Shown here: positions 12,084 through 45,374 of the stretch, one piece after another
Layout of the letters: every line of letters begins with the position of its first letter
Numbering within the stretch: the stretch's first letter is position 1
Assembly: GCA_016784945.1 (NCBI GenBank)
Contig: JADHTP010000001.1
Location: 1 to 46,426, forward strand
DNA: 46,426 nt
From: Deltaproteobacteria bacterium
GTDB taxonomy: Bacteria; Myxococcota_A; UBA9042; DTJE01
Reading direction: 5' to 3'
Translations under genes and position numbers: made by a program
Notes under the pieces: generated by a model
Told to the model about the DNA's origin: nothing
Database searches by the model: none
The model's input: only the letters and a program-made list of their open reading frames with translations

Positions 12084-13238
12084 TTATTTCCTTTGGGTCT
12101 TTCCGGGCGGAGGCCGGCGCATCTTCACGGGCTGGGGGATCCGTTTCACACGGGATCGAATGCCTGATCGCGTGCGGGCCCCCGACCCACGGCCCAGGGT
12201 ATAGGGCACCTCGATGACAGGTTGGTCCTTCCGGTTCGTCCGGACCTGGACCTTGCCGCTGGTCTTGTCGGGCTTTGTCGCAAGGGTCAGATGCGCGACC
12301 CACTGGCCGTTCACCTGCTCCACCTTGCCGGTCACGAAGCCCGCCGGGTCCTTGACGCCCTTCAGCTTGAAGGCCTTCTTCGACAGGGAAGAAACGCGCA
12401 CGTCCACGATCTGCGCCTGTTTTTCCTTGAAATCGGAAAAGAAGACCCGGGGCGGGTCGGTCCACAGGTCGTTCGAAACCGTCCCGCTCACCGTGAGCCG
12501 CAGGGTCTTGGGATTGTCCAGGTTGGTGGTGGCCATCACGCTTTCCGAGAGCCGGCCGGGCTTGTCGCCGGCGGTCACGGTGACCTCCAGAGTGGGTCCA
12601 CCCTTGCCTTCCACCAGTTTGGCGGACACCCTCCCGGGATTGGACGGCTTGATCTGGGTGATCTTGAACTTGCCCGGATCACGGGCCACCACCTTCACGG
12701 TCTGGGTCTTCTTCTCGCCCCGCGCCACCCGCCCCAGCCTGACATAGGCCGGTTCGAAGGCGGCGATGACTTCCACGTCCCCGCTGAGCGTGAGCGTGAA
12801 CTTCGGTTGCTTGGGGTCGTTGGACGACACCGTCACCGACTTCTTGAGCTTGCCCTTGCGTCCACGGGAACTGACCTTGACTTCGATTTTTCCTTCCCCG
12901 CCCGGGGGAACGTCGGTCGCCGAAACGACGGCCGCCGTACAGCCTCAACCACCCCTCGCGGACAGGATGTTGAGCACGTCGTCACCCACGTTCCTGATGG
13001 TGAACACATGCTTCATTTCATCGCCCTGGACCACCTTCCCGTACTCGTGAAGTGGTTTGTCGCAGGCAATCACGGGGCCCTTCTTGCCGGCCTTGTCCGT
13101 CTTGGCGGGCGCGGACGCCTTGGGGGGCGCCTTGTCGGGCGGGTCGGACTTGGGGGTTTCGCCGCCCTTGCAGCCCCACAGCCCGGCCAGGGCCAGGGCG
13201 CCGGCCGCCAGCCACGGCATCATTCTTTTCAGTCTCAA
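12084..13238 (-). CDS. DUF1573-repeat lipoprotein with an in-frame TGA at 12945-12947; candidate selenoprotein, otherwise a nonsense pseudogene
   Basis: Track ORFs 12945..13340 and 12084..12836 are in the same frame, separated only by the TGA at 12945-12947 and 36 open codons. The read-through sequence is ...KHVFTIRNVGDDVLNILSARGG-[TGA]-GCTAAVVSATDVPPGGEGKIEVKVSSRGRKGKLKKSVTVSSNDPKQPKFTLTLSGDV. This follows the DUF1573 pattern (N-x-G, L-x-I, CGCT, PG, G-x-I-x-V, V-x-SND), with the TGA at the first Cys of CGCT. The N-terminus is a lipoprotein signal (M)RLKRMMPWLAAGALALAGLWGC. The candidate start is the TTG at 13238, 5 nt after GGAGGTG, or the ATG at 13223. Two further DUF1573-like domains without the Cys motif follow. 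Confidence 0.65.
12910..12938 (-). promoter_or_regulatory. SECIS-like mRNA hairpin downstream of the in-frame UGA
   Basis: The mRNA reads UGA GGCUGU [ACGGCGGCCGUCG] UUU [CGGCGACCGACGU]. The two 13-nt arms form 11 pairs (including one G-U) with 2 mismatches. The stem starts 7 nt after the UGA and the apical loop is about 20-22 nt after it. That is within the range described for bacterial SECIS elements. Confidence 0.45.
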
Positions 13239-13278
13239 TTTCACCTCCGCATTCCCTCGAGGCCCGGACTCCGGAACC

Positions 13279-13803
13279 TCAGTCGTTGAAGATGTAGTCA
13301 TACCAGAACCGCTTGCTTCTGTCCTGCGTGAGATCCACATGGATGTGCTTGATCTGGGTGTAGGCCAGCGGTCCCTGGGGCCCCAGTTCCCTGCCCACCA
13401 CGGAACCGGCGCCGATGAGCACGTTGAGCACGCCTTCCGGCAACCCGGCCTCCATGGCGCATGATGACCATCATGGTGGTCTTCCGGATGGTTGCCCCAC
13501 CGTCTTTCGCTTCCAGTTGCGCCAGCTCGAATTACTTTTCCTTCAGCTTTTCACACACATTGTACAGGATCCGGGTAGAGGATCCGGGTACAGGATCCGG
13601 GCCCTCTCCTTTGGCTCCAGTCCGCTCCAAACGCCGGAGTCGAAGGACTTTCGGGCGGCCTCCACCGCCCGCTTCGCATCGCCCTCGGTGGCCACCGGTA
13701 CTTCGGCAATGGGTTCCTCGGTGGCAGGGTTGAAGGTGGGCCTGGTCTCCCCGGATTCGGCGTCCACGAACTGGCCGTCGATCAGCATCCGGTAGCGATC
13801 CAT
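13279..13803 (-). pseudogene. Decayed aldehyde dehydrogenase (ALDH superfamily) pseudogene
   Basis: The ATG at 13803 after GAGGAAAGG opens MDRYRMLIDGQFVDAESGETRPTFNPATEEPIAEVPVATEGDAKRAVEAARKSFDSGVWSGLEPKERARIL, a typical ALDH N-terminus. The frame is then broken by a 13-nt triplication. The next fragment, YNVCEKLKEK-TAA-FELAQLEAKDGGATIRKTT, contains a stop. A third frame gives MEAGLPEGVLNVLIGAGSVVG fused directly to the C-terminal motif GRELGPQGPLAYTQIKHIHVDL...IFND* (stop at 13279-13281). About 525 nt remain of an expected gene of roughly 1.45 kb. Confidence 0.8.
13563..13601. repeat. 13-nt perfect or near-perfect tandem triplication inside the ALDH pseudogene
   Basis: TACAGGATCCGGG TAGAGGATCCGGG TACAGGATCCGGG. 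The two extra copies add 26 nt and shift the reading frame. Removing them restores ...ERARILYNVCEKLKEK. Confidence 0.85.
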
Positions 13804-13971
13804 GACCTTTCCTCGACAGTGATTCAGTTCGCATTCTATCCAGTCCACGAACCCTGATCAACGCCGGTGGATTCGGATTCCACTTGCTCCACTGTGCCCT
13901 GGAACCGTAGAATGGCATCCTCCGAACCTTAGCGGCGCCCGGGAAACGGTTGGCCCTTCAGGAGGACCGAA

Positions 13972-32494: not shown

Positions 32495-33451
32495 TCAATT
32501 GCCCCGCGCAGTGGCCGCGAGCCCGCGGTGCCGCCAGTACATGAAGGCGCCATAGGCAAACAGGGGGATACCGATGAGCTGGGAGGTGGAAAGACCCAGG
32601 AGGTCCCCGCGAGGGTCAGCGCGCCAGAATTCGATGACGAACCGCAGGACCGCGTACTGCATGAGGAACGTGAAGAACAGCTGGCCATCGAACCGGGCCC
32701 GGGTCCGGCGCCAGAAGTACAGGTAGAGGAAGATTGCCATACACCCGATGGCCTCCCAGAGCTGGGTGGGATACACCGGCAGCGACTCTGTGGCCGCCCG
32801 ATTGATGAGGCCTTCGGTCAGGTGATGGTCCCAGACCGGGCTTCCGCGGGGAAAGGACAGGCCGCCGTGGGCGGGCGTGGGACAGACTTGCCCCCAGCAG
32901 CAACCGGACAGGAAGCAGCCCATGCGGCCGAAGACCAGGCCGAGAGGTATGGCGTAGCCGGCCAGGTCGCCCACCTTCCAGACGGGCATTCCGAAGCGCC
33001 TGACGAACCAGATGCCCAACGGGATGGCCAGGGCCAGACCACCGTAGTAGACGAGCCCTCCGTACCAGAACTTGAAGGCCCGAAAACAGTCCTTTGCGTG
33101 GCACGTGCCCTTTTCCGGGTGGCAGAGGTCCCCCTTTTCCGCCTCCACGCAGTCCCCGTCGTCCTTGCACCTGACGCCCCCGGGCAGGGCTTCACCCTTG
33201 ACCAGCAGGGGCGCCACGCACAGGTTCTTGTAGTCCTCCCAGTACCCGTCGGCGGCCACGTGCAGCACCCGCGCGCCCACGATGCCCGCGATGATCATCA
33301 CCAATCCCAGGTCCAGGAAGCGGTTCCCGTCCACGCCTCCCCGTCTCAGCACGTCCCGGTGGGCCAGCAACACCACGAAGGTGTATCCCACCATGAGGAA
33401 AGTGAAATAGGCGGGGAACTCGATGAAGCCCAGGTCGAAGGTGGGGAACAA
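32495..33451 (-). CDS. lgt: Prolipoprotein diacylglyceryl transferase with Cys-rich periplasmic insertions
   Basis: Lgt motifs are present: GARVLHV, FWYGGLVYYGG, GRMGCFLSGCCWG (aligning with GRxGNFxNxELxG), YPTQLWEA and SQLIGIPL. The start is uncertain. The track ORF runs to 33571, but the TTG at 33451, 6 nt after GGAGA, gives a typical N-terminus (M)FPTFDLGFIEFPAYF and 318 aa. Confidence 0.8.
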   Translation of the reverse strand: MFPTFDLGFIEFPAYFTFLMVGYTFVVLLAHRDVLRRGGVDGNRFLDLGLVMIIAGIVGARVLHVAADGYWEDYKNLCVAPLLVKGEALPGGVRCKDDGDCVEAEKGDLCHPEKGTCHAKDCFRAFKFWYGGLVYYGGLALAIPLGIWFVRRFGMPVWKVGDLAGYAIPLGLVFGRMGCFLSGCCWGQVCPTPAHGGLSFPRGSPVWDHHLTEGLINRAATESLPVYPTQLWEAIGCMAIFLYLYFWRRTRARFDGQLFFTFLMQYAVLRFVIEFWRADPRGDLLGLSTSQLIGIPLFAYGAFMYWRHRGLAATARGN

Positions 33452-33552
33452 GGGGTTTCTCCAGCAGGTCCGCCGGGGATTGTACCACCGGGGGGAATGG
33501 GTGCGCCTCAATAGGCGTTGCGGATGAGGATTGGATGAATCGAGGTTGAAGG

Positions 33553-33582
33553 ATGAACGACAAACGTCCAACGACGATGGGT
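33553..33582 (-). repeat. Weaker heptanucleotide repeat locus
   Basis: The minus strand reads CCATCGT CGTTGGA CGTTTGT CGTTCAT. It lies in the lgt upstream region, divergent from tolQ. It is more degenerate than the other loci. Confidence 0.4.
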
Positions 33583-33720
33583 GCCCGAACCAGGACAGGA
33601 CGCCGTTTGACGATGGACCTTTGACGTTAAACCGGGTAAATCCAACGACCGACGCTGTCTTATTGGTCCCAGAGCCCCTGTGATATCATCATCGGGCCCT
33701 TCGGTCTGGTGGAGGAAGAT

Positions 33721-34425
33721 ATGCCCCCGGGACCTGAAACCATCTATGGAATCAACGTGTTCGAACAGGTGATCCAGTCCCGGGGAATGGTCCTCGCGGT
33801 GCTGGTCCTTCTCATCGGACTGTCCGTGTTCTCGTGGTTTGTCATCGGCTACAAATGGCTGCTCTTCCGCCGGATCAGGAAGGATACCGAGCGGTTCTTC
33901 GACATCTTCTGGCGCTCCGAGACCCTGGATGCCGTGGAGAGCGCCAGTGAAGGCCTGCCCCGGTGCCCGACAGCCCGCCTCTTCCACGCCGCCTATACCG
34001 AGTTGAACCGGTTCAAGGGCACGGGCAAGGAGGACAGCGACGGGAGCACGCACCTGGGCGGCGGGTTCGAGAACATCGAGCGGGCCCTGAGGCGGGCGGT
34101 TCAGGACGAGATATCCCACCTCGAGCACCTGGTCGGATTCCTGGCGACCACGGGCTCGGCCGCCCCCTTCATCGGGCTCTTCGGCACGGTCTGGGGCATC
34201 ATGAACGCCTTCGCCTACATCCACCCCGATCGGCCCATCCTGGAGACGGTGACACCCCACATCGCGCAGGCCCTGGTGGCCACGGCCATCGGGCTGCTGG
34301 CGGCCATTCCCGCCGTGATGGCGTACAACTATTTCACCGGGCGGATCAGGAACTTCACCGTGGAGATGGACAACTTCTCCATCGATTTCCTGAATATCCT
34401 CAAGCGACACTTCTTCAAGGACTGA
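33721..34425 (+). CDS. tolQ: MotA/TolQ/ExbB-family proton channel, TolQ by context
   Basis: ATG at 33721 directly after GGAGGAAG (the track ORF starts at GTG 33709). Three TM segments are present. Characteristic segments are LATTGSAAPFIGLFGTVWGIMNAF and ALVATAIGLLAAIPAVMAYNYF. Confidence 0.85.
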   Translation: MPPGPETIYGINVFEQVIQSRGMVLAVLVLLIGLSVFSWFVIGYKWLLFRRIRKDTERFFDIFWRSETLDAVESASEGLPRCPTARLFHAAYTELNRFKGTGKEDSDGSTHLGGGFENIERALRRAVQDEISHLEHLVGFLATTGSAAPFIGLFGTVWGIMNAFAYIHPDRPILETVTPHIAQALVATAIGLLAAIPAVMAYNYFTGRIRNFTVEMDNFSIDFLNILKRHFFKD

Positions 34426-34427
34426 GC

Positions 34428-35012
34428 ATGCAGGGGCCCGGAAACAGAGGCGCCATGCTGTCCGAGATCAACGTGACGCCCCTGGTGGACGTCATGCTGG
34501 TCCTGTTGATCATCTTCATGATCTCGTCTTCCATCGAAACACTGCAGGTGCAGCAGGAAAAACAGCGAATCGAGAAGGAATTCGAAATCGACGACATGCC
34601 GGATCAGAAGGTGCCGGTCAACCTTCCCAAGACCAATGCCGAGCCGGTGAACCTGGCCGAGGACAGGAAACTGGTGATGACCATCAACGAGCGGGCCGAG
34701 TTCTTCATCGGGCCCACGAAGATCCTCTCGTGCCTGGACCTGGCGCCCCGTCTGGACAAGGTACTGGGGACACGCCGCTCGGCCTGGGGACCCAACGAGG
34801 ACAAGGCCTTCAAGCTCTGCCTCGATGCCCTGGAAGCCAAACTGTCGAAGAACGCCAAGCTCAAGGCCGACAAGGAGATGTATCTGAGGGCCGACGAAGG
34901 CATTCCCTATGGCATGGTCCTCAAGGTGATGGCCCGGATCCGGGCGTCGGGCGTGGCCAAGTTCGGGCTGGTGGCGGAGCCCGAAGAGGCCCCGAAAGGG
35001 GCGGCGCAGTGA
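34428..35012 (+). CDS. tolR: ExbD/TolR-family protein
   Basis: ATG at 34428, 2 nt after the tolQ stop. MQGPGNRGAMLSEINVTPLVDVMLVLLIIFMI is the canonical ExbD/TolR N-terminus. At 194 aa it is longer than typical. Confidence 0.85.
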   Translation: MQGPGNRGAMLSEINVTPLVDVMLVLLIIFMISSSIETLQVQQEKQRIEKEFEIDDMPDQKVPVNLPKTNAEPVNLAEDRKLVMTINERAEFFIGPTKILSCLDLAPRLDKVLGTRRSAWGPNEDKAFKLCLDALEAKLSKNAKLKADKEMYLRADEGIPYGMVLKVMARIRASGVAKFGLVAEPEEAPKGAAQ

Positions 35013-35905
35013 CCGATGCTCTTCTACAGACCCCCGGCAGGGACTTGGGCGGCGGTTGGGCGCTGTGGTTCGGCGGGACCGTGACCCTGGGCGTTCACGG
35101 GATCATCGTCACGGTGCTGGCCACGGCCACGGGCGCGGCGGACCTGGATGCCGTGACCTTTCCAGTGAGCCGCCGCCTGTGCGACGACATCCGCTGCGCC
35201 GAAAAGGCCCGCACGGACCGTCGACGGGGCCTGGACGAGGAAGCGGTGGACGTGGGAATCATCGAAGCCACGGTGATCCCCCGACTCGGTCTGGCGGAAC
35301 CCAAGGCTCGCAAGCTCCCCAAGCTGATCAAGTACGAACAGCCTGAAAAGATCGAGGAGGCCGTCAACGTCATCAGGGACAATCCCATCGTCAAGAAAAT
35401 CAAGCACAAGGACGTGAAGCCCAAGAAGGCGGAACTGGACCGCCGGCGCAAGAAGAAGTCCCTGGTGGCCATCCTGGGCTCGCCCGAAGACGACGACCCG
35501 CGCAAGCGAGCCACCTCCCTGGACCGAATCATCGGGTCAAAGTCAGGGATCGTCACCGGGGTGGGAACGGACAAGATCGAAGGCAACGTCTATGCCGGCA
35601 AGGTGGCGGGCGCCATCCACCAGCGGTTCACCGTGCCCCCGTTCCTGGGCGAGTCCGAATTGAAGAAACTTCGCATGAGGATCCGCATCACGCGGATGAA
35701 CGAGGGCGGACAGATCGTCAAATACAAGGTCATGAGGAAGTCCCGCACCCGGGCGTTCGACGAGGCGGCCATAAGGGCCATTCGTCAGTTCATGCCCAGT
35801 GAAGGCGGGGTGGCGCACCTGCCGGCCCCCGATGCCAGGACCCTCAAGTACATCAACGCCCGGGGCATGGTGGTGGACCTGGACGGGGCCCTGTTCCGGA
35901 AGTGA
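35009..35905 (+). CDS. TolA/TonB-like energy-transducer protein
   Basis: The GTG at 35009 overlaps the tolR stop (GTGA). There is an N-terminal TM segment WALWFGGTVTLGVHGIIVTVLATA and a charged Lys/Glu/Pro-rich linker. The C-terminal domain YAGKVAGAIHQRFTVPPFL...IRITRMNEGGQIVKYKVMRKSRTRAFDEAAIRAI resembles the TonB_C/TolA fold. Confidence 0.7.
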   Translation: MTDALLQTPGRDLGGGWALWFGGTVTLGVHGIIVTVLATATGAADLDAVTFPVSRRLCDDIRCAEKARTDRRRGLDEEAVDVGIIEATVIPRLGLAEPKARKLPKLIKYEQPEKIEEAVNVIRDNPIVKKIKHKDVKPKKAELDRRRKKKSLVAILGSPEDDDPRKRATSLDRIIGSKSGIVTGVGTDKIEGNVYAGKVAGAIHQRFTVPPFLGESELKKLRMRIRITRMNEGGQIVKYKVMRKSRTRAFDEAAIRAIRQFMPSEGGVAHLPAPDARTLKYINARGMVVDLDGALFRK

Positions 35906-37334
35906 TCGGGGGACTTGGGACATCAACGCAACGTCATCAGTCACGGGCCGAGGGGTCCTGTTCCAGGCCCTGGTGGTGCTCCTGCTCACGGCCCTTGCCC
36001 TAACAGCCATGGCCCGTGGCGGGGACCGCACCAGGCCCGTTCCCGACGACCCGAGATGCGGACGTTTCGGTTATGCCCGGAGCGTTCCCATGCCTCTCAT
36101 TCCCGTCGCCTGGCCCCTGATCCAGGACCTCAGCCGGCACGGAGAACTGGAAGGGGTGACCGAAAGGCTCTCCCGGGCCATCGCCAATGACCTGGGTCTC
36201 TCCGGCGTCTTCCTGATCCGCTCCCGCGAGTCCCGCCCCACGTCATCCATGATCACCTGGAACTCGGCGCTGGCCTTCGACTACCTGGGATGGCGACAGG
36301 CCAGGGCCTGGATGGTGGTGGTGGGCGAGGTCGCACCGAACGGTGATGGCAACCTGCGGGTCCGGCTGGATGGGTACCTGACCGAAGAAGCCGACATCCT
36401 CGGGATCGGAAACGCTGAAAAAGTGCTTTCCCCGGCAAACGTGGAGGACTTCGGTCACCAGTATGTCAACGCTCTGCTCCAGTGCATCACGGGACTGTCG
36501 GGCACCTTTGGCAGCCGGATCACCTATTCCCACCGGCCCCGCGCCGGTGCGGCCAAGGAAATCTTCTTCGTGGAGTTCGGGTCCACCGATCCGGTCCAGG
36601 TGAGCCGGGACGGGTCCGTGGCCATGCTGCCCGCCTGGGCCCCCGGTGGGGGTATCGCCTTCACCGGTTTCCAGGAGGGCAACCCTGACGTGTACCTGGC
36701 CGACTGCCCCGGATGCCCCCAAGGGGGGGTCCGGCAACTGTCCGCCCGACAGGGGATGAACTCGGGCATCGCGTTTTCCCCCAGGGGTGGTCTGGCGGCC
36801 CTCACCATGGCGCCAGACGGCAACCCGGACATCTACCTTATCGACGGGAAGACGGGGGACGCCATGGCGCGCCTGACCACCTCGGGGTCCATCGACACGA
36901 GCCCGGCCTGGTCACCGGACGGCCGGCGGATCGCCTTCGTTTCCGACCGTCGCGGGAGCCCCCAGATCTGGGTCATGAACTCCGATGGCACGGAGCAGCG
37001 GCCACTGCCCCTGTCCGGCAGTTACAACACCAGTCCGGACTGGTCCCCCGACGGCGCGGAGATCGTCTACCAGTGCCGGGTGGGCGGCAGACGCTTTACA
37101 ATAAAGGTCTACAATCTCCTGACCGGCGCGGTGAGAGTCCTCACGAGGGGCGCGAGCAGCGAGGAACCGTCCTGGTCACCGGACGCGCGAATGATCGTGT
37201 ACACGCACCAGGCCCGGGGTCCCAAGGAACTCTGGATGATGACCCGGGACGGAACCGGGGCCCGACCCCTCCTCGACGGCCCCGGGGAGTATTTCACGCC
37301 GGCCTGGGAGCGACCCTTCTCCGGGAACCGCTGA
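35799..37334 (+). CDS. tolB: Tol-Pal system beta-propeller protein TolB (start uncertain)
   Basis: Beta-propeller repeats are present: PAWAPGGGIAFTG, GNPDIYLIDGKTG, SPAWSPDGRRIAFVSDRRGSPQIWVMNSDGT, SPDWSPDGAEIVY and EPSWSPDARMIVY. The signal-like segment is VLFQALVVLLLTALALTAMA. No ATG/GTG/TTG lies in frame between the tolA-like stop (35905) and this segment. The options are the GTG at 35799 or the ATG at 35832 (about 100 nt overlap with the upstream gene), or the GTG at 35973 inside the hydrophobic core. Confidence 0.8.
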   Translation: MKAGWRTCRPPMPGPSSTSTPGAWWWTWTGPCSGSDRGTWDINATSSVTGRGVLFQALVVLLLTALALTAMARGGDRTRPVPDDPRCGRFGYARSVPMPLIPVAWPLIQDLSRHGELEGVTERLSRAIANDLGLSGVFLIRSRESRPTSSMITWNSALAFDYLGWRQARAWMVVVGEVAPNGDGNLRVRLDGYLTEEADILGIGNAEKVLSPANVEDFGHQYVNALLQCITGLSGTFGSRITYSHRPRAGAAKEIFFVEFGSTDPVQVSRDGSVAMLPAWAPGGGIAFTGFQEGNPDVYLADCPGCPQGGVRQLSARQGMNSGIAFSPRGGLAALTMAPDGNPDIYLIDGKTGDAMARLTTSGSIDTSPAWSPDGRRIAFVSDRRGSPQIWVMNSDGTEQRPLPLSGSYNTSPDWSPDGAEIVYQCRVGGRRFTIKVYNLLTGAVRVLTRGASSEEPSWSPDARMIVYTHQARGPKELWMMTRDGTGARPLLDGPGEYFTPAWERPFSGNR

Positions 37335-40052: not shown

Positions 40053-41795
40053 GTGAACGTCCTGGGGCTCTCGTTCATGTACCACGACTCAGCCGCCTGC
40101 CTGCTGAAGGACGGCATCGTGGTGGCCGCGGCCGCAGAGGAACGATTCTCCCGCAAGAAGCACTCCCTGGATTTCCCCACCGGCGCCATCCGGTCGTGCC
40201 TATCCCTGGGCGATGTCCCCGTGGACGCCCTGGATGCCGTGGTGTTCTACGAAAAGCCTCTGCTCAAGTTCGAGCGCATCGTGACCATGAACTCGGGCGC
40301 CTTTCCCCGTGGCTTCGCCCTGTTCGCCGATGCCATGCCCCTGTGGCTCAAATACAAGCTGTTCATCCGAGAGATGATCCGCACCAACCTGGGGTATGGG
40401 GGCGACGTGTTCTTCGCCGACCACCACTATGCCCACGCATCCAGCGCGTTCTTCCCATCGGGCTTCGACGAGGCGGCCGTCCTGACCATGGACGGCGTGG
40501 GCGAGTGGGCCACCATGACCCGGGGACGGGGGGAGGGCAACCGGATCCACCTGACCCACGAACTCCGATACCCCCACAGCCTGGGGCTGCTGTACAGCAC
40601 CGTGACCGCCTTCCTGGGATTCAGGGTGAACAGCGGCGAAGGCAAGGTCATGGGCCTGTCGTCCTACGGGAATCCGACCTTCCGGGACCGACTGCTGGAC
40701 AGGGTGATCGACCTGCGGGACGACGGAAGCTTCCGCCTCAACCTGGACTATTTCTCGTTCCACCGGGACCTGGTGATGTACAGCCCCCGTTTCGTGGACG
40801 AGTTCGGCGAGCCCCGCAAGCCCGAATCGGACATCACGGCCCGGGACGAGGACCTGGCCTGCTCCCTCCAGGACGTGGTCAACACCGCGTGTCTCAATGC
40901 CGCCGCCCACGTGGGTCGTGAAACCGGTTCCCGGCGCCTCTGCATCGCCGGCGGCGTGGGCCTGAACAGCGTGGCCAACGGGCGGATCCTGGAAGAGGGG
41001 GACTTCGACGAGGTCTTCATCCAGCCCGCCTCCGGCGACGACGGCGGGGCCATCGGGAGTGCGCTGTTCTACTATCACCAGGTGCTCGGGAACCCCCGCC
41101 GGTGGCACATGGAACACGCCTTCCTGGGTTCCGCCGACGACCCCGACGAGGTTCAGCGGTTTCTGGATGCCAGGGGAATGCCCTACCGCCGGTTCGAACG
41201 GACAGAGGATCTCGTGGAACGGGCGGCCTCGGACCTGGCCCGAGGACGGATCGTGGGGTGGTGCCGGGGAAGGATGGAGTATGGCCCCCGGGCCCTGGGC
41301 AATCGGTCCATCCTGGCCAGCCCCACCATCGACGGAATGCAGGACGTGATGAACGAGCGGGTCAAGCACCGCGAGTCGTTTCGGCCCTTTGCGCCCGCCG
41401 TGCTGCTGGAACGGGTGGGGGAATTCTTCGACCCGCCCTTCGGAAGCCCATTCATGCTGCTCGTGGCTCGCACACGGCCCGACAAGAAAGACGTCCTGGG
41501 CGCCGTCACCCACGTGGACGGGACGGCGCGCCTCCAGACCGTGGACAAAACACACAATCCCCGTTTCCACGACCTGATCGCACGTTTCGGTGAAACGACC
41601 GGGGTCCCCGTGCTCCTGAACACCTCCTTCAACATCCGCGGGGAACCCATCGTCCGTGACTGCGGCGACGCCCTGACCTGTTTCCTGAACACGGGCATTG
41701 ACTGCCTGGCCCTGGAGGACTGTTACCTCGTCAAGGAAGAGGACCCCGGCGACGGGAAGACCCGGCGACTGCTGCCGCCCCTGGAGTGGGAATGA
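40053..41795 (+). CDS. NodU/CmcH/SxtI-family carbamoyltransferase
   Basis: GTG at 40053 after GAGGTG, 580 aa. (M)NVLGLSFMYHDSAACLLKDGIVVAAAAEERFSRKKH is the hallmark N-terminus. Also present are HHYAHASSAF, LTMDGVGEW, GKVMGLSSYG, GGVGLNSVANG, the C-terminal domain RMEYGPRALGNRSILA and LLNTSFNIRGEPIV. Confidence 0.9.
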   Translation: MNVLGLSFMYHDSAACLLKDGIVVAAAAEERFSRKKHSLDFPTGAIRSCLSLGDVPVDALDAVVFYEKPLLKFERIVTMNSGAFPRGFALFADAMPLWLKYKLFIREMIRTNLGYGGDVFFADHHYAHASSAFFPSGFDEAAVLTMDGVGEWATMTRGRGEGNRIHLTHELRYPHSLGLLYSTVTAFLGFRVNSGEGKVMGLSSYGNPTFRDRLLDRVIDLRDDGSFRLNLDYFSFHRDLVMYSPRFVDEFGEPRKPESDITARDEDLACSLQDVVNTACLNAAAHVGRETGSRRLCIAGGVGLNSVANGRILEEGDFDEVFIQPASGDDGGAIGSALFYYHQVLGNPRRWHMEHAFLGSADDPDEVQRFLDARGMPYRRFERTEDLVERAASDLARGRIVGWCRGRMEYGPRALGNRSILASPTIDGMQDVMNERVKHRESFRPFAPAVLLERVGEFFDPPFGSPFMLLVARTRPDKKDVLGAVTHVDGTARLQTVDKTHNPRFHDLIARFGETTGVPVLLNTSFNIRGEPIVRDCGDALTCFLNTGIDCLALEDCYLVKEEDPGDGKTRRLLPPLEWE

Positions 41796-43132
41796 GGAAG
41801 AAACCGGCCACCGGCGCCTTTGGACAGCAGCACGGAACCCGGCGATCGCGGTCCCTGCTGCGCGCTCTGTCGGGTCTCGAGGCCCCGGAGGTCATGGATC
41901 ACCAGTCCGACTTCCCAGTGGTCCTGAGCAAGGCCACGGGCGCCCGGGTCCAGGACGTGGACGGCAACCGCTATATCGACCTAGGCGGCTTCTTCGGCGT
42001 GGCCGTGGCGGGCCACCGGAACCGGGCCGTGGTGGCGGCCCTGCGTAAACAGGCGGGACGCCTGCTCCACGGCATGGGCGACGTACATCCCACGGACACC
42101 AAGGCCCGCTTCCTGTCCAGACTGTCCCGGTGCCTGCCCGCCTCCGACTATCGAGCGGTGTTGTCCCTCAACGGGTCCGACGCCGTGGAGTGCGCACTCA
42201 AGTTCGCCGCCGCGGCCACGGGCCGCCCCGGGGTCATCGCCTTTGAGGGCGCCTACCACGGCCTCACTGCCGGTGCCCTGGAGGTCACCGCCCACGACAT
42301 GTTCCGGCGACCCTTCGCGCCCACCCTGCAGGGACGCGGGTCCTTCGTGCCCTTCCCCACGGACGAGGGGGAGGCCCGGGCCGACAGGGTGCTGAAGACC
42401 ATCCGGGAAAAGGCCAGGTCGGGGGAAAAGAAGAGTCATCCCATAGGCGCCATCATCGTGGAGCCCATCCAGGGCCGGGGGGGAATCCGCGTCCCGCCTC
42501 CGGGATTCCTGGCCGACCTGTCGGACCTGGCGGGCCGGGAAGGCCTGGTGCTCATCGCGGACGAGATCTACTCCGGCGTGGGGCGGACCGGGACCTTCCT
42601 CGCCGGCGACCACGAGGGCCTGGTCCCCGACGTGGTCTGCCTGGGAAAGTCACTGGGCGGCGGGATGCCCCTGTCGGCCTGCCTGCTGAGGCAGCCCGTG
42701 GCCGAGGCGGTCCAGGGCACGCCCACGGAGGCGGTACATACTTCCACCTTCCTGGGCCATCCCCTGGCCTGCGCCGCGGGACTGGCCGTACTGGGCGAAA
42801 TGGAACGAAGGGACCTCTACACAGCGGCAACCCGGATCGGGACCTCCCTGATGTGGCGGGCCCGGTCCTGGAAGGAGCGCTTCGCCGGGGTGCGGGACGT
42901 ACGGGGCAGGGGCGCCATGGTGGGGGTGGAACTGGCCGACAGGGACGGCGGACCCGGCTCGGACGCCGCCATGGCGGTCTGCGACAGGGCCCTCAACCAG
43001 GGCGTGATCCTGCTCCCCGCCGGCGGGGAAGGGAACGTGCTGACCTTCACCCCTCCCCTGGTGATCACCGGAAAGGATCTGGACAGGGCCCTGGACACGG
43101 TGGAAGAAGGTCTGAAAGAGGTCCTGGACTGA
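41792..43132 (+). CDS. Class-III (omega-type) PLP-dependent aminotransferase
   Basis: The ATG at 41792 overlaps the carbamoyltransferase stop (ATGA). Motifs are GARVQDVDGNRYIDLGGFFGVAVAGHRN, NGSDAVECALKFA, AFEGAYHG, EPIQGRGG and LIADEIYSGVGRTGTFLAGDHEGLVPDVVCLGKSLGGGMPLSA (the Schiff-base Lys is in LGKSLGGG). Confidence 0.88.
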   Translation: MRKKPATGAFGQQHGTRRSRSLLRALSGLEAPEVMDHQSDFPVVLSKATGARVQDVDGNRYIDLGGFFGVAVAGHRNRAVVAALRKQAGRLLHGMGDVHPTDTKARFLSRLSRCLPASDYRAVLSLNGSDAVECALKFAAAATGRPGVIAFEGAYHGLTAGALEVTAHDMFRRPFAPTLQGRGSFVPFPTDEGEARADRVLKTIREKARSGEKKSHPIGAIIVEPIQGRGGIRVPPPGFLADLSDLAGREGLVLIADEIYSGVGRTGTFLAGDHEGLVPDVVCLGKSLGGGMPLSACLLRQPVAEAVQGTPTEAVHTSTFLGHPLACAAGLAVLGEMERRDLYTAATRIGTSLMWRARSWKERFAGVRDVRGRGAMVGVELADRDGGPGSDAAMAVCDRALNQGVILLPAGGEGNVLTFTPPLVITGKDLDRALDTVEEGLKEVLD

Positions 43133-43144
43133 CGGCGGGCGCCA

Positions 43145-44182
43145 ATGATCGATCCAACACTGGTGAATCGGATACGCGAGTTCATCGGGTCGGCACGGGA
43201 CCCGGATGACGGGGCCTTCGTGACCCTGTGCCGTGCCGTGGCCCGTGCCCAGGGCCGCCTTGGCGCCGGGTCCGGTCTCGAAGCCATCGAGCCGGTCCCC
43301 GAAGGGGCCTTCAAGCTGTCAGATGTGGCCCACTTCCCCAGGTCCCGGGCCCAGGCCACTTTTCGGACGTCGGGCACCACCACGGGACGGCCCGGCCTTC
43401 ACCTGGTGCGGGACATGGACCTCTACCGCCGTTCTGCCCTGGCGGGATTCGAGCGCTACCTCCTGTATCCCCCCCGGCCCGGCCGGTTCGTCAGCCTCAT
43501 TCCCCCGGCCCCACAACGGCCCGGCTCCTCCCTGTCCCACATGGTGTCCATGGTGATGGAGGCCTTTGCCGGTGAGCAGGCCACCTTCGCGAGGAAAGGC
43601 AACGCACTGGCTCTGACACCCCTGATGGCCGCGGTCCGGGAGGCGGTGGATTCCCGTGAACCACTGGTGCTCCTGGGAACAAGCCTGGATTTACTTACCC
43701 TGTTCGAGGCTCTGGAACATTCGAACACGGCAAACGTGGCCCTCCCACGGGGCAGCCGGGTCATGCACACCGGGGGTGACAAGGCCAGCGGGCGGGCCAT
43801 CACACGGGAGAAAATCTGGCAGGGTCTTGACCGTTATTTCCAGATCCCACCGGAGGACGTGGTGGAAGAGTTCGGCATGACCGAACTTTTGTCCCAGGCC
43901 TACGATGCGCCCCGCGTGGTCCCCGGACAGCGACGACTGGTGCCGGTCCCTTGGATGCGCACCCGCGTGCTGGATCCCACAACCTTCACCGAGGTGGATT
44001 CGGGCAGCCGCGGCCTGCTGTGCCACTACGACCTGGCCAACTGCCACACAGCGGTGGCCGTGCTCACCAGCGACCTGGGGCTGCGGATCAACGAAGGCTT
44101 CAGTCACATCCACCGGGTGCCCGGGTCCACGCCCAGGGGCTGCTCACACGAGGCCGCTCGAGGGGTTCGTACCCATGTCTGA
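43145..44182 (+). CDS. LuxE-like acyl-protein synthetase (adenylate-forming, PaaK/LuxE clade)
   Basis: ATG at 43145, 345 aa. The TSGTTG-type motif is FRTSGTTTGRPGLHLVRDMDLY. Also present are GGDKASGR and EEFGMTELLSQAY. Length and motif order fit the LuxE family as I remember it. Its end overlaps the next gene by 8 nt. Confidence 0.6.
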   Translation: MIDPTLVNRIREFIGSARDPDDGAFVTLCRAVARAQGRLGAGSGLEAIEPVPEGAFKLSDVAHFPRSRAQATFRTSGTTTGRPGLHLVRDMDLYRRSALAGFERYLLYPPRPGRFVSLIPPAPQRPGSSLSHMVSMVMEAFAGEQATFARKGNALALTPLMAAVREAVDSREPLVLLGTSLDLLTLFEALEHSNTANVALPRGSRVMHTGGDKASGRAITREKIWQGLDRYFQIPPEDVVEEFGMTELLSQAYDAPRVVPGQRRLVPVPWMRTRVLDPTTFTEVDSGSRGLLCHYDLANCHTAVAVLTSDLGLRINEGFSHIHRVPGSTPRGCSHEAARGVRTHV

Positions 44183-45374
44183 CGTGCCACGGCCCGAACC
44201 GCTGCCTCCCCTCTCCGAGGAGGAAATCGCAGGCAGGCTCTTCGCCCTGCGGGAACGCTGGCGCAACCCCGGAAAGGAAGCCGGCCAAAAGGGCATGGCC
44301 ACCCTGTCACGCCAGACCGGATTCCCCCCTGCGCACGTTCACGAAGCCCTGAAGAGGGCCTTTGCGCCCTTCACTCAACGCTCCATCCGTCGCCTCGTCC
44401 GCCTTGGCAGGGGACCTCGCGCCGGCTCACCGTGGCTCCTGGCCATCCTGGCGGGCCGGATCCCCGCCGTGGCTGTCAACGCCCTGTTCTGGTCCCTGGC
44501 CGCCCGGGTGCCCCTGGCCGTGAAATCCCCGGGCGCCCTGGACGCCTTCACGGCCCTGCTGGTCCGGTCCCTGGCCCGCATGGGGGGATCTCTGGGCCCC
44601 TGCGTCACCCACCTGACATTCCCTTCCGGCACCGGTCCCATGGCACGGCTGGTGGAGTCGGCGCCCCTGTGCCTGGCCTACGGCAGCGACCACACATTCC
44701 GCGCCGTGACGGAGGCTCGCCGGGGGCGTCCCACGCTGGGAGGTGGGCACCGCGAGTCCTTCGTTGTCGTGTTCCGGGAGGCCCTGGAACGGGACGGGGT
44801 GTCCCACCTCGCCCGCGCCATCGCCCGGGACAGCGCCGTCTATGACCAGGACGGCTGCCTTTCACCCCAGGCGGTGCTGGTGGAGGAAGGGGGCGGGACG
44901 AGCCCGAGGGAACTGGCCCGACGAATTCACGACGAGCTGGTCGGAATGGCCAGGCCCCTGCCACCGTCGATACCCCCGCTGGAGGAGGCCGCTCGGCTCC
45001 GGATCTTTGCCGAGGAGTGCCGGTACACGGCGCGGGCTTCGGGTGGGCGGGTCTTTCCCGAAAGAGGCGCACCGATCCCCCTGGTGGCGGTGCTCCCGGG
45101 CCAGCCCTACCGGACGGGACCGGGTCATCGCGTCCTCCAGGTACTGCCCTTTTGCGACGAGCCCGATCCCGCCCGCCTTCTTCCGTCGATGTCGGGCCAT
45201 GTTCAAGGGGTGGCAGTGGCCGGCCCGAGGGCTCGCCTGGAATCTCTGTTCGAGGCCGATCCCGGCTACCGGGCCGGATACGTCTGTGCCCCGGGCCGGC
45301 TGCAGCGTCCCCCGGCCGTGTGGGCCGAGAACGGCATCATCATCACAAAGGAACTGGCCCGCCTGGCTCGCTGA
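44175..45374 (+). CDS. LuxC-like acyl-CoA (acyl-protein) reductase
   Basis: ORF 43905..45374 trimmed to the ATG at 44175 (MSDVPRPEPLPPLSEEEIAGRL...), 399 aa. LAGRIPAVAVNALFWSLAARVPLAVKSP resembles the LuxC G-N-[IV]-P...K-x-[SP] segment. AVYDQDGCLSPQAVLVEEGG supplies a candidate catalytic Cys in a Q-x-x-C-x-S-P context. The pairing with the LuxE-like gene supports the call. Confidence 0.6.
   Translation: MSDVPRPEPLPPLSEEEIAGRLFALRERWRNPGKEAGQKGMATLSRQTGFPPAHVHEALKRAFAPFTQRSIRRLVRLGRGPRAGSPWLLAILAGRIPAVAVNALFWSLAARVPLAVKSPGALDAFTALLVRSLARMGGSLGPCVTHLTFPSGTGPMARLVESAPLCLAYGSDHTFRAVTEARRGRPTLGGGHRESFVVVFREALERDGVSHLARAIARDSAVYDQDGCLSPQAVLVEEGGGTSPRELARRIHDELVGMARPLPPSIPPLEEAARLRIFAEECRYTARASGGRVFPERGAPIPLVAVLPGQPYRTGPGHRVLQVLPFCDEPDPARLLPSMSGHVQGVAVAGPRARLESLFEADPGYRAGYVCAPGRLQRPPAVWAENGIIITKELARLAR

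Follow-up and report, generated by a model that had tools for sequence, protein, structure and literature searches.

The OS_HP2 family, named for "Olavius symbiont hypothetical protein 2", goes back to Zhang and Gladyshev (2007), who described it as a new family of selenoproteins from the metagenome of the Olavius symbiont (PMC1976440). In the Global Ocean Sampling (GOS) survey OS_HP2 corresponds to pfam07610, with the motif UxC and 354 cysteine (Cys) homologues (PMC2398784), and reviews from 2022 and 2026 list a DUF1573 domain-containing selenoprotein with the motif UGC (PMC9312934, PMC13188914). The GOS table places OS_HP2 beside DsbA-like and DsbG-like UxxC selenoproteins (PMC2398784). Like OS_HP2, these proteins are exported and carry a selenocysteine (Sec) and a Cys only a few residues apart, but they combine a thioredoxin fold with UxxC, whereas OS_HP2 combines an immunoglobulin-like (Ig-like) beta-sandwich with UxC, and its redox activity is putative. 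The cited family literature contains no drawing of a selenocysteine insertion sequence (SECIS). Here we analyze a gene with an in-frame TGA on the minus strand of a 46,426-nucleotide stretch of DNA from an uncultured Myxococcota/'Deltaproteobacteria' lineage (GCA_016784945.1, contig JADHTP010000001.1, positions 1 to 46,426; the whole stretch is referred to as the window). We conclude that this gene, at 13238..12084, very probably encodes a selenoprotein of the already described OS_HP2/DUF1573 family.

The reading frame runs on the minus strand from a TTG at 13238-13236 to a TAA at 12086-12084, and the TGA at 12947-12945 is its sole interruption, which agrees with the initial annotation, where two open reading frames (ORFs) had been joined into one. 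The parts of the gene needed for the argument are listed here in window coordinates.

12084 to 13238, minus strand: the complete, very probable OS_HP2/DUF1573 selenoprotein gene, from TTG start to TAA stop, 384 codons including Sec.
13244 to 13248, minus strand: a Shine-Dalgarno-like GGAGG, read from the sequence, 5 nt upstream of the TTG.
12945 to 12947, minus strand: the proposed Sec codon UGA, position 1 of the U-G-C motif; the homologous codon is TGA in 54 orthologous loci and TGC or TGT in 11.
12939 to 12941, minus strand: TGT, the partner Cys codon of the U-G-C motif; this +2 Cys is retained in all compared Sec and Cys forms.

The read-through peptide around the Sec is SARGG-U-GCTAAVVSATDVPPGGEGK. 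Alternative ATG starts are present at 13223 and 13220, of which database gene callers use the one at 13223. Public gene calls cut the locus into ORFs of 92 and 250 amino acids in every assembly seen, and recognition of the Sec codon turns these split calls back into one 384-codon protein with a predicted export signal. A scan for further in-frame TGA candidates in the window yielded ordinary gene boundaries only.

The read-through protein, with C written in place of the stop for profile searches, matches the NCBIfam model NF041425, "OS_HP2 family (seleno)protein", with 100.3 bits against a curated cutoff of 100; the Cys homologues P0003 and P0006 score 95.9 and 98.6 bits, respectively. The Pfam profile PF07610 spans the stop, with residues 54-150 aligned to profile positions 3-98 of 98 (E=3.8e-25) and a score of 88.2 bits against a cutoff of 26.1, so the DUF1573 pattern that had been noticed across the stop is confirmed by a match covering the TGA site. 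At the TGA site the window protein has ARGG-U-G-C-T, and P0003 and P0006, both full-length homologues, have ARGS-C-G-C-T. Membership of OS_HP2 is thus indicated by the profile match, by the alignment of the UGA with the first Cys of C-G-C, and by the presence of both Cys-containing and UGA-containing homologues at the same column. We find no difference in kind between the window gene and the described family, with which it shares the PF07610 domain, U-G-C at the first-Cys position, abundant Cys homologues and a score of the hidden Markov model at the curated cutoff; it differs in coming from an uncultured Myxococcota/'Deltaproteobacteria' lineage. Features of the window copy within OS_HP2 are its predicted lipid anchor, an additional Cys located 39 residues before the Sec, and two further Ig-like domains.

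The initial annotation had not counted DUF1573 among the well-known selenoprotein families and had considered this gene a candidate new selenoprotein. The claim of a new family fails, because the protein matches NF041425, a model dedicated to the family, and OS_HP2 appears in the 2007 paper (PMC1976440), in the GOS survey and in the reviews. The family has been catalogued since 2007, and the gene is one more member of it, genuine but unremarkable. Since DUF1573/OS_HP2 is already a listed selenoprotein family, the window gene adds little to biology, and the OS_HP2 catalogue gains little from it. The modestly new results are a comparative definition of a two-hairpin SECIS, the adjacency of orthologues to selC, and an ars-cluster context, all of which are described below.

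Orthologues were collected by scanning a genome collection, one genome per species, with a 9-sequence query alignment, which returned 80 loci, and three metagenome relatives were added. Exactly at the Sec codon, TGA is found in 54 distinct orthologues with 27-82% identity, and TGC or TGT is found in 11 others. The orthologues with TGA belong to Myxococcota/'Deltaproteobacteria', Zixibacteria, Ignavibacteria, Gemmatimonadota, Thermodesulfobacteriota and other groups. In the protein search, close relatives are represented only by C-terminal fragments (P0002 with 82% identity, P0004 with 62% and P0005 with 52%), and many more-distant homologues start directly after the motif. Translation continues through the UGA at 12947-12945, which serves as a sense codon. 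Genome-wide reassignment of UGA was considered and ruled out, because TGA is the terminator of 22 of the 27 window genes. The initial annotation had assigned Sec to the position of the first Cys in CGC, and had expected an alignment of orthologues to contain Cys homologues as well as other UGA homologues with conserved RNA structure downstream. Both kinds were recovered, 54 with TGA versus 11 with TGC/TGT, the hairpins downstream are specific to the Sec forms, and the placement of the Sec codon is supported on all of these counts.

The published consensus for bacterial SECIS elements (bSECIS; PMC13188914, Fig. 2A) calls for an apical loop of 3-9 nt, with a G in its first two positions, on an upper stem of 4-16 bp; the distance from the UGA to this loop is 16-37 nt "for most", and the minimum free energy (MFE) is -7.5 kcal/mol or lower. 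Two hairpins follow the UGA of the window gene.

12914 to 12931, minus strand: hairpin H1 (proximal), the core of the hairpin proposed in the initial annotation; a covarying helix of variable sequence whose loop lies roughly 20 nt past the UGA, alignment columns 17-34.
12894 to 12910, minus strand: hairpin H2 (distal), UUCCCC-CGGGC-GGGGAA, with its loop at 12904-12900, alignment columns 38-54; the segment encodes (I/V/L)-P-P-G-G-E.

Both helices exist and are specific to Sec forms. In an RNA alignment extending from the UGA to +66 and including 51 distinct Sec forms, H2 is the sole helix of the RNAalifold consensus and is 100% paired. All 6 of its pairs are formed in 54 of 54 Sec forms, as against 2-5 of 6 in all 11 Cys forms. 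The underlying codons are NTT CCC CCG GGN GGG GAA in all 54 Sec forms, save for one CCT and one GAG, both of which still pair; synonymous sites within the stem are therefore essentially frozen, and free variation is seen at the synonymous site of the loop codon (GGN) and at the one that follows it downstream. Cys forms that have the same peptide at this place use other codons, for example CCG, GGT, GGC and GAG. The loop has the form CGGGN, and its GGG is invariant in the 54 Sec forms. The H2 motif occurs once in the window, and when it was sought in 1.37 Mb of loci, 62 of 63 matches started exactly 37 nt after the U of a TGA, the remaining one starting at 34 nt. With a 6-bp stem and a 5-nt loop, H2 has an energy of -8.2 kcal/mol.

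The hairpin originally proposed as the SECIS is a 29-nt structure at 12938..12910 with 11 pairs, 2 mismatches and a UUU loop, starting at the 7th nt after the UGA. This proposal holds in part: the core of the structure, H1, is a real, covarying and Sec-form-specific helix, but it has no conserved loop G, and the hairpin with the invariant GGG loop is H2, the next one downstream, which the initial annotation had not mentioned. Covariation in H1 amounts to 25 double-change cells versus 9.1+-2.5 in shuffles, a value that none of 500 shuffles reached and that lies above all slid controls. The helix varies partly in register, and its stems take forms as different as CCGUCGU/GCGACGG, CCCUGGU/ACCAGGG and CUCUGUC/GACAGAG. 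When the MFE of H1 was compared with that of synonymous recodings preserving each gene's own codon usage, the mean z was -1.74 in the 54 Sec forms (below -1 in 44 of them) versus +0.10 in the 11 Cys forms, and this difference has a Mann-Whitney p of 1.3e-4. The H1 loop has no conserved G: the window gene has UUCG/UCGUUU there, and AACA or UUCU occurs in some of the orthologues. The extended form of H1 has an energy of -12.5 kcal/mol. RNA structure is thus conserved beyond the needs of the protein, and only in UGA forms, as seen from the frozen synonymous sites of H2 and from the z values and covariation of H1.

Compared with the bSECIS consensus, H2 agrees in loop, stem, loop G and MFE, but its loop is 40 nt from the UGA, 3 nt over the 16-37 nt range; H1 has a spacing within the range (20 nt) and lacks a G in the first two loop positions. 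The arrangement resembles bSECIS elements of the Escherichia coli fdhF type in that a small stable stem-loop with G residues in its apical loop (H2) follows the UGA within the coding region. It differs from them in that the G-loop hairpin stands 40 nt from the UGA instead of 16-37 nt and is preceded by the covarying H1, a tandem layout that is outside the consensus. In the mechanism that we propose, SelB and Sec-tRNA(Sec) would decode the UGA as Sec under the direction of a SECIS that lies in the coding region and consists of two tandem hairpins. Since H2 satisfies the bSECIS consensus bar spacing and H1 is in range but has no conserved loop G, H2, located 37 nt after the U of the UGA and bearing the invariant GGG-containing loop, is the likely SelB-binding element, and H1 is probably a structured spacer that sets the through-space distance.

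We tentatively suggest, with somewhat less than even confidence, that OS_HP2 possesses a distinct tandem-hairpin class of bacterial SECIS and, independently, that the protein has a candidate role in handling arsenic or soft metal(loid)s outside the cytoplasm. In such a class SelB would bind the invariant UUCCCC-CGGGN-GGGGAA at a fixed 37 nt, outside the 16-37 nt rule for loop spacing, and the need for this RNA would leave no Sec form free to change the protein motif I-P-P-G-G-E. The proposed two-hairpin SECIS of OS_HP2 is now comparatively defined, and predictors that enforce 16-37 nt would choose the wrong hairpin.

Several observations weigh against identification of the window gene as a selenoprotein gene. 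The NF041425 score is barely at the cutoff, and experimental selenium incorporation has been reported for no OS_HP2 member in the cited family literature. Neither H1 nor H2 satisfies every published bSECIS constraint, and Rfam gave no match at the gathering threshold over the whole window, nor at E<=10 around the site. Folding of the single sequence made the proposed hairpin no better than dinucleotide shuffles, with z of +0.54, -0.76 and -0.03 for three stretches; folding around the UGA is uninformative in this sequence of 66% G+C (z from +0.54 to -1.09), where no hairpin stands out from the shuffles, and support for H1 must therefore be comparative. Neither the 46-kb window nor the 8 kb to its right contains genes for selA, selB, selD or tRNA-Sec, as judged by a tRNA scan of the window and by Pfam annotation, and Sec decoding in this organism is something that we infer. 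Finally, the loci were retrieved with peptide patterns that include PPGGE, which biases the amino-acid conservation of the motif but not its synonymous sites.

Ascertainment bias was also considered as the cause of H2 and was rejected: the peptide pattern is codon-degenerate, and Cys forms obtained with the same pattern use other codons, so the hairpin cannot be explained in this way. At the protein level, the peptide encoded at window positions 12911-12894 is (I/V/L)-P-P-G-G-E in 54 of 54 Sec forms and variable in Cys forms (APGQHG, PPGTKA and APGAKG among others), a comparison to which the bias of the PPGGE pattern does apply. The H2 RNA appears to constrain the protein sequence there.

Outside the window, 12 related loci, mostly from Myxococcota, have a tRNA-Sec gene on the strand of the orthologue and 0.2-4.4 kb downstream of it.

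L009, L010, L011, L014, L015, L016, L018, L020, L023, L024, L041 and L056, same strand as the orthologue: loci with adjacent tRNA-Sec, for example at 7824-7921 in L011 and at 8720-8817 in L015.

In L009, the ORFs between the orthologue and tRNA-Sec resemble, as judged from their translations, a DUF47/PhoU-like protein, a PitA-like phosphate transporter and an FHA-domain protein; no resemblance to selA, selB or selD was seen among these intervening ORFs from translations only, with no family search run. The adjacency of tRNA-Sec in the 12 loci provides indirect support for Sec decoding in the clade. That the gene frequently adjoins tRNA-Sec in Myxococcota is also a potentially useful side result.

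The alternative that best withstands these data is a site-specific recoding of the UGA as something other than Sec, for instance by a hairpin-stimulated near-cognate tRNA that inserts Trp, Cys or Arg. Such recoding would be compatible with the fact that the Sec machinery of this genome was not seen in the window and 8 kb beyond its right end, and with the imperfect fit of the hairpins to the bSECIS consensus. However, a Sec/Cys pair within a C-x-C motif is the classical signature of selenoproteins, OS_HP2 counts among the accepted selenoprotein families, the apical loop of H2 is small and contains G, as is typical of SelB-binding SECIS elements, and tRNA-Sec genes adjoin the orthologues in 12 loci. 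We consider non-Sec recoding improbable.

A further possibility is that a Cys-type DUF1573 gene acquired the TGA by nonsense mutation, or that the TGA reflects a mistake of sequencing or assembly in such a gene; the locus would then be a pseudogene or an artefact. TGA is indeed one substitution away from TGC/TGT, and there is some decay nearby, as only fragments of the aldehyde dehydrogenase gene just upstream remain in this species. Five metagenome assemblies from different runs nevertheless contain the 1,177-nt gene region in identical form (the contig is carried by SRR8062321, SRR8062320, SRR19040528, ERZ24794656 and ERZ23498983), and the base-call error that the initial annotation had envisaged is thus not supported. 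Fifty-four orthologues, with identities as low as 27%, have TGA at the corresponding codon, and the RNA hairpins specific to Sec forms follow the codon. The 286 codons downstream of the UGA stay open when compared with the 82% and 62% relatives, and the ratio of nonsynonymous to synonymous substitution rates (dN/dS), which is 0.31 upstream of the UGA, is 0.21 (82% relative) and 0.26 (62% relative) downstream of it, with no neutral evolution or frameshifts in close relatives. The protein downstream of the UGA is under purifying selection and the UGA is conserved across phyla, and we give a mutation or error almost no credence. Two separate genes, a 92-aa lipoprotein ending at the TGA and a 250-aa protein restarting at GTG 12836, are what public gene calls show in every assembly, but this reading is to all intents excluded, because the 37 codons from the TGA to the GTG, the first possible restart codon (GCTAAVVSATDVPPGGEGKIEVKV...), would go untranslated and yet are the most conserved segment of the protein and complete the DUF1573 domain; in addition, restart positions vary among orthologues (the N-termini of P0002, P0004, P0007 and P0014 differ) and the split would halve one Ig-like domain.

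The following features are relevant to the domain composition of the read-through protein.

13170 to 13238, minus strand: predicted signal peptide, MRLKRMMPWLAAGALALAGLWG followed by C, with a lipobox-like L-W-G-C at 13181-13170 and the Cys codon at 13172-13170.
12774 to 13064, minus strand: the DUF1573/OS_HP2 Ig-like domain, the first of three tandem Ig-like domains (PF07610 E=3.8e-25; PF22544 E=5.6e-18).
13062 to 13064, minus strand: the codon of the clade-specific extra Cys (I-A-C-D), 39 codons upstream of the Sec.

The window protein is predicted to be exported and lipid-anchored, by way of a signal peptide with a lipobox-like L-W-G-C. Read against the lipobox [LVI][ASTVI][GAS]C, the sequence has a positive n-region, a hydrophobic core and the Cys, and its W at -2 departs from the canonical pattern. 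Orthologues of the Myxococcota clade retain an equivalent Cys following a hydrophobic stretch, and orthologues from Zixibacteria and Ignavibacteria have an N-terminal transmembrane anchor in place of the lipobox Cys. With either the lipobox Cys or the transmembrane anchor, the DUF1573 domain is expected to be extracytoplasmic. The extra Cys(-39) is present in the Sec forms of the Myxococcota clade and in most of their Cys forms; other clades have Phe or another residue there, Phe being the residue in the Zixibacteria/Ignavibacteria clade. An AlphaFold2 model of the Cys homologue P0003, which is 49% identical to the window protein, consists of three tandem Ig-like beta-sandwiches (mean pLDDT 84), and its C-G-C forms a loop between two strands of the first domain. 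Sequence and fold searches against the PDB returned generic Ig/ASH-like matches and one uncharacterised protein, 2qsv, only. It may be speculated that the U-G-C selenol/thiol pair acts outside the cytoplasm, either as a putative redox centre (a selenenylsulfide) or as a putative binding site for soft metal(loid)s.

Genomic neighborhoods in other phyla bear on this question. In metagenome-assembled genomes of Ignavibacteria, Zixibacteria and Gemmatimonadota, OS_HP2 is encoded inside a tight co-directional cluster, the best example of which is found at 6497-13734 of L030. The order of genes there is ArsR, a thioredoxin-like Cys-rich protein, an FtsX/MacB-type permease, an ABC ATPase and OS_HP2, followed by a 128-aa ORF, ArsR, two LMWP-type phosphatase/ArsC-like genes and an SBF/ACR3-type transporter. 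Similar clusters are present in L026, L028, L033, L034, L037, L044, L045, L047 and others; overall, an ArsR homologue (either copy) is found near OS_HP2 in 17 loci and an ACR3-type transporter in 12. This context suggests, as a lead from outside the clade of the window gene, that OS_HP2 has a role in arsenic or soft metal(loid) handling or in a linked redox step, and it offers, for the first time, a testable indication of what the U-G-C/C-G-C motif may do.

ArsR has a C-x-C site that binds As(III). The OS_HP2 motif is likewise of the C-x-C type, and the Ignavibacteria/Zixibacteria orthologues are clustered with ArsR, ArsC and ACR3. The two differ in fold and in cellular location, the window gene has no ars neighbours in the window, and metal(loid) binding by OS_HP2 is putative.

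The proteins of the ars-type cluster are 60-90% identical between phyla. This identity suggests that the cluster has spread horizontally.

The neighbours of the window gene itself, which include a Ser/Thr kinase, dnaN, recF and a TPR protein, are uninformative. Directly upstream, on the minus strand at 13279-13848, are the fragments of an aldehyde dehydrogenase gene: the ORF at 13543-13848 is the N-terminal fragment, and 13279-13455 holds the C-terminal one. An intact copy (494 aa) occupies this place in the 62% relative (L089), the 82% relative (L086) has none, and the window copy looks like a gene caught mid-deletion.

Elsewhere in the window, two sets of genes belong to a housekeeping context. 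One is Lgt, at 32495-33571 on the minus strand, which would lipidate the predicted lipoprotein; the other is a Tol/ExbB-ExbD-TonB-TolB cluster at 33709-37334 on the plus strand. Co-directional genes on the plus strand at 40053-45374 encode a carbamoyltransferase, a class-III aminotransferase, a LuxE-like acyl-protein synthetase and a LuxC-like acyl-CoA reductase, and may form a small biosynthetic operon. Past the right end of the window, on the same contig (L091, 12809-21038), there are genes for a 742-aa protein with a MopE-type copper-binding domain, a PP2C phosphatase and a UvrA-like protein, followed by the start of a contractile-sheath (Pvc16_N/phage sheath) gene set.

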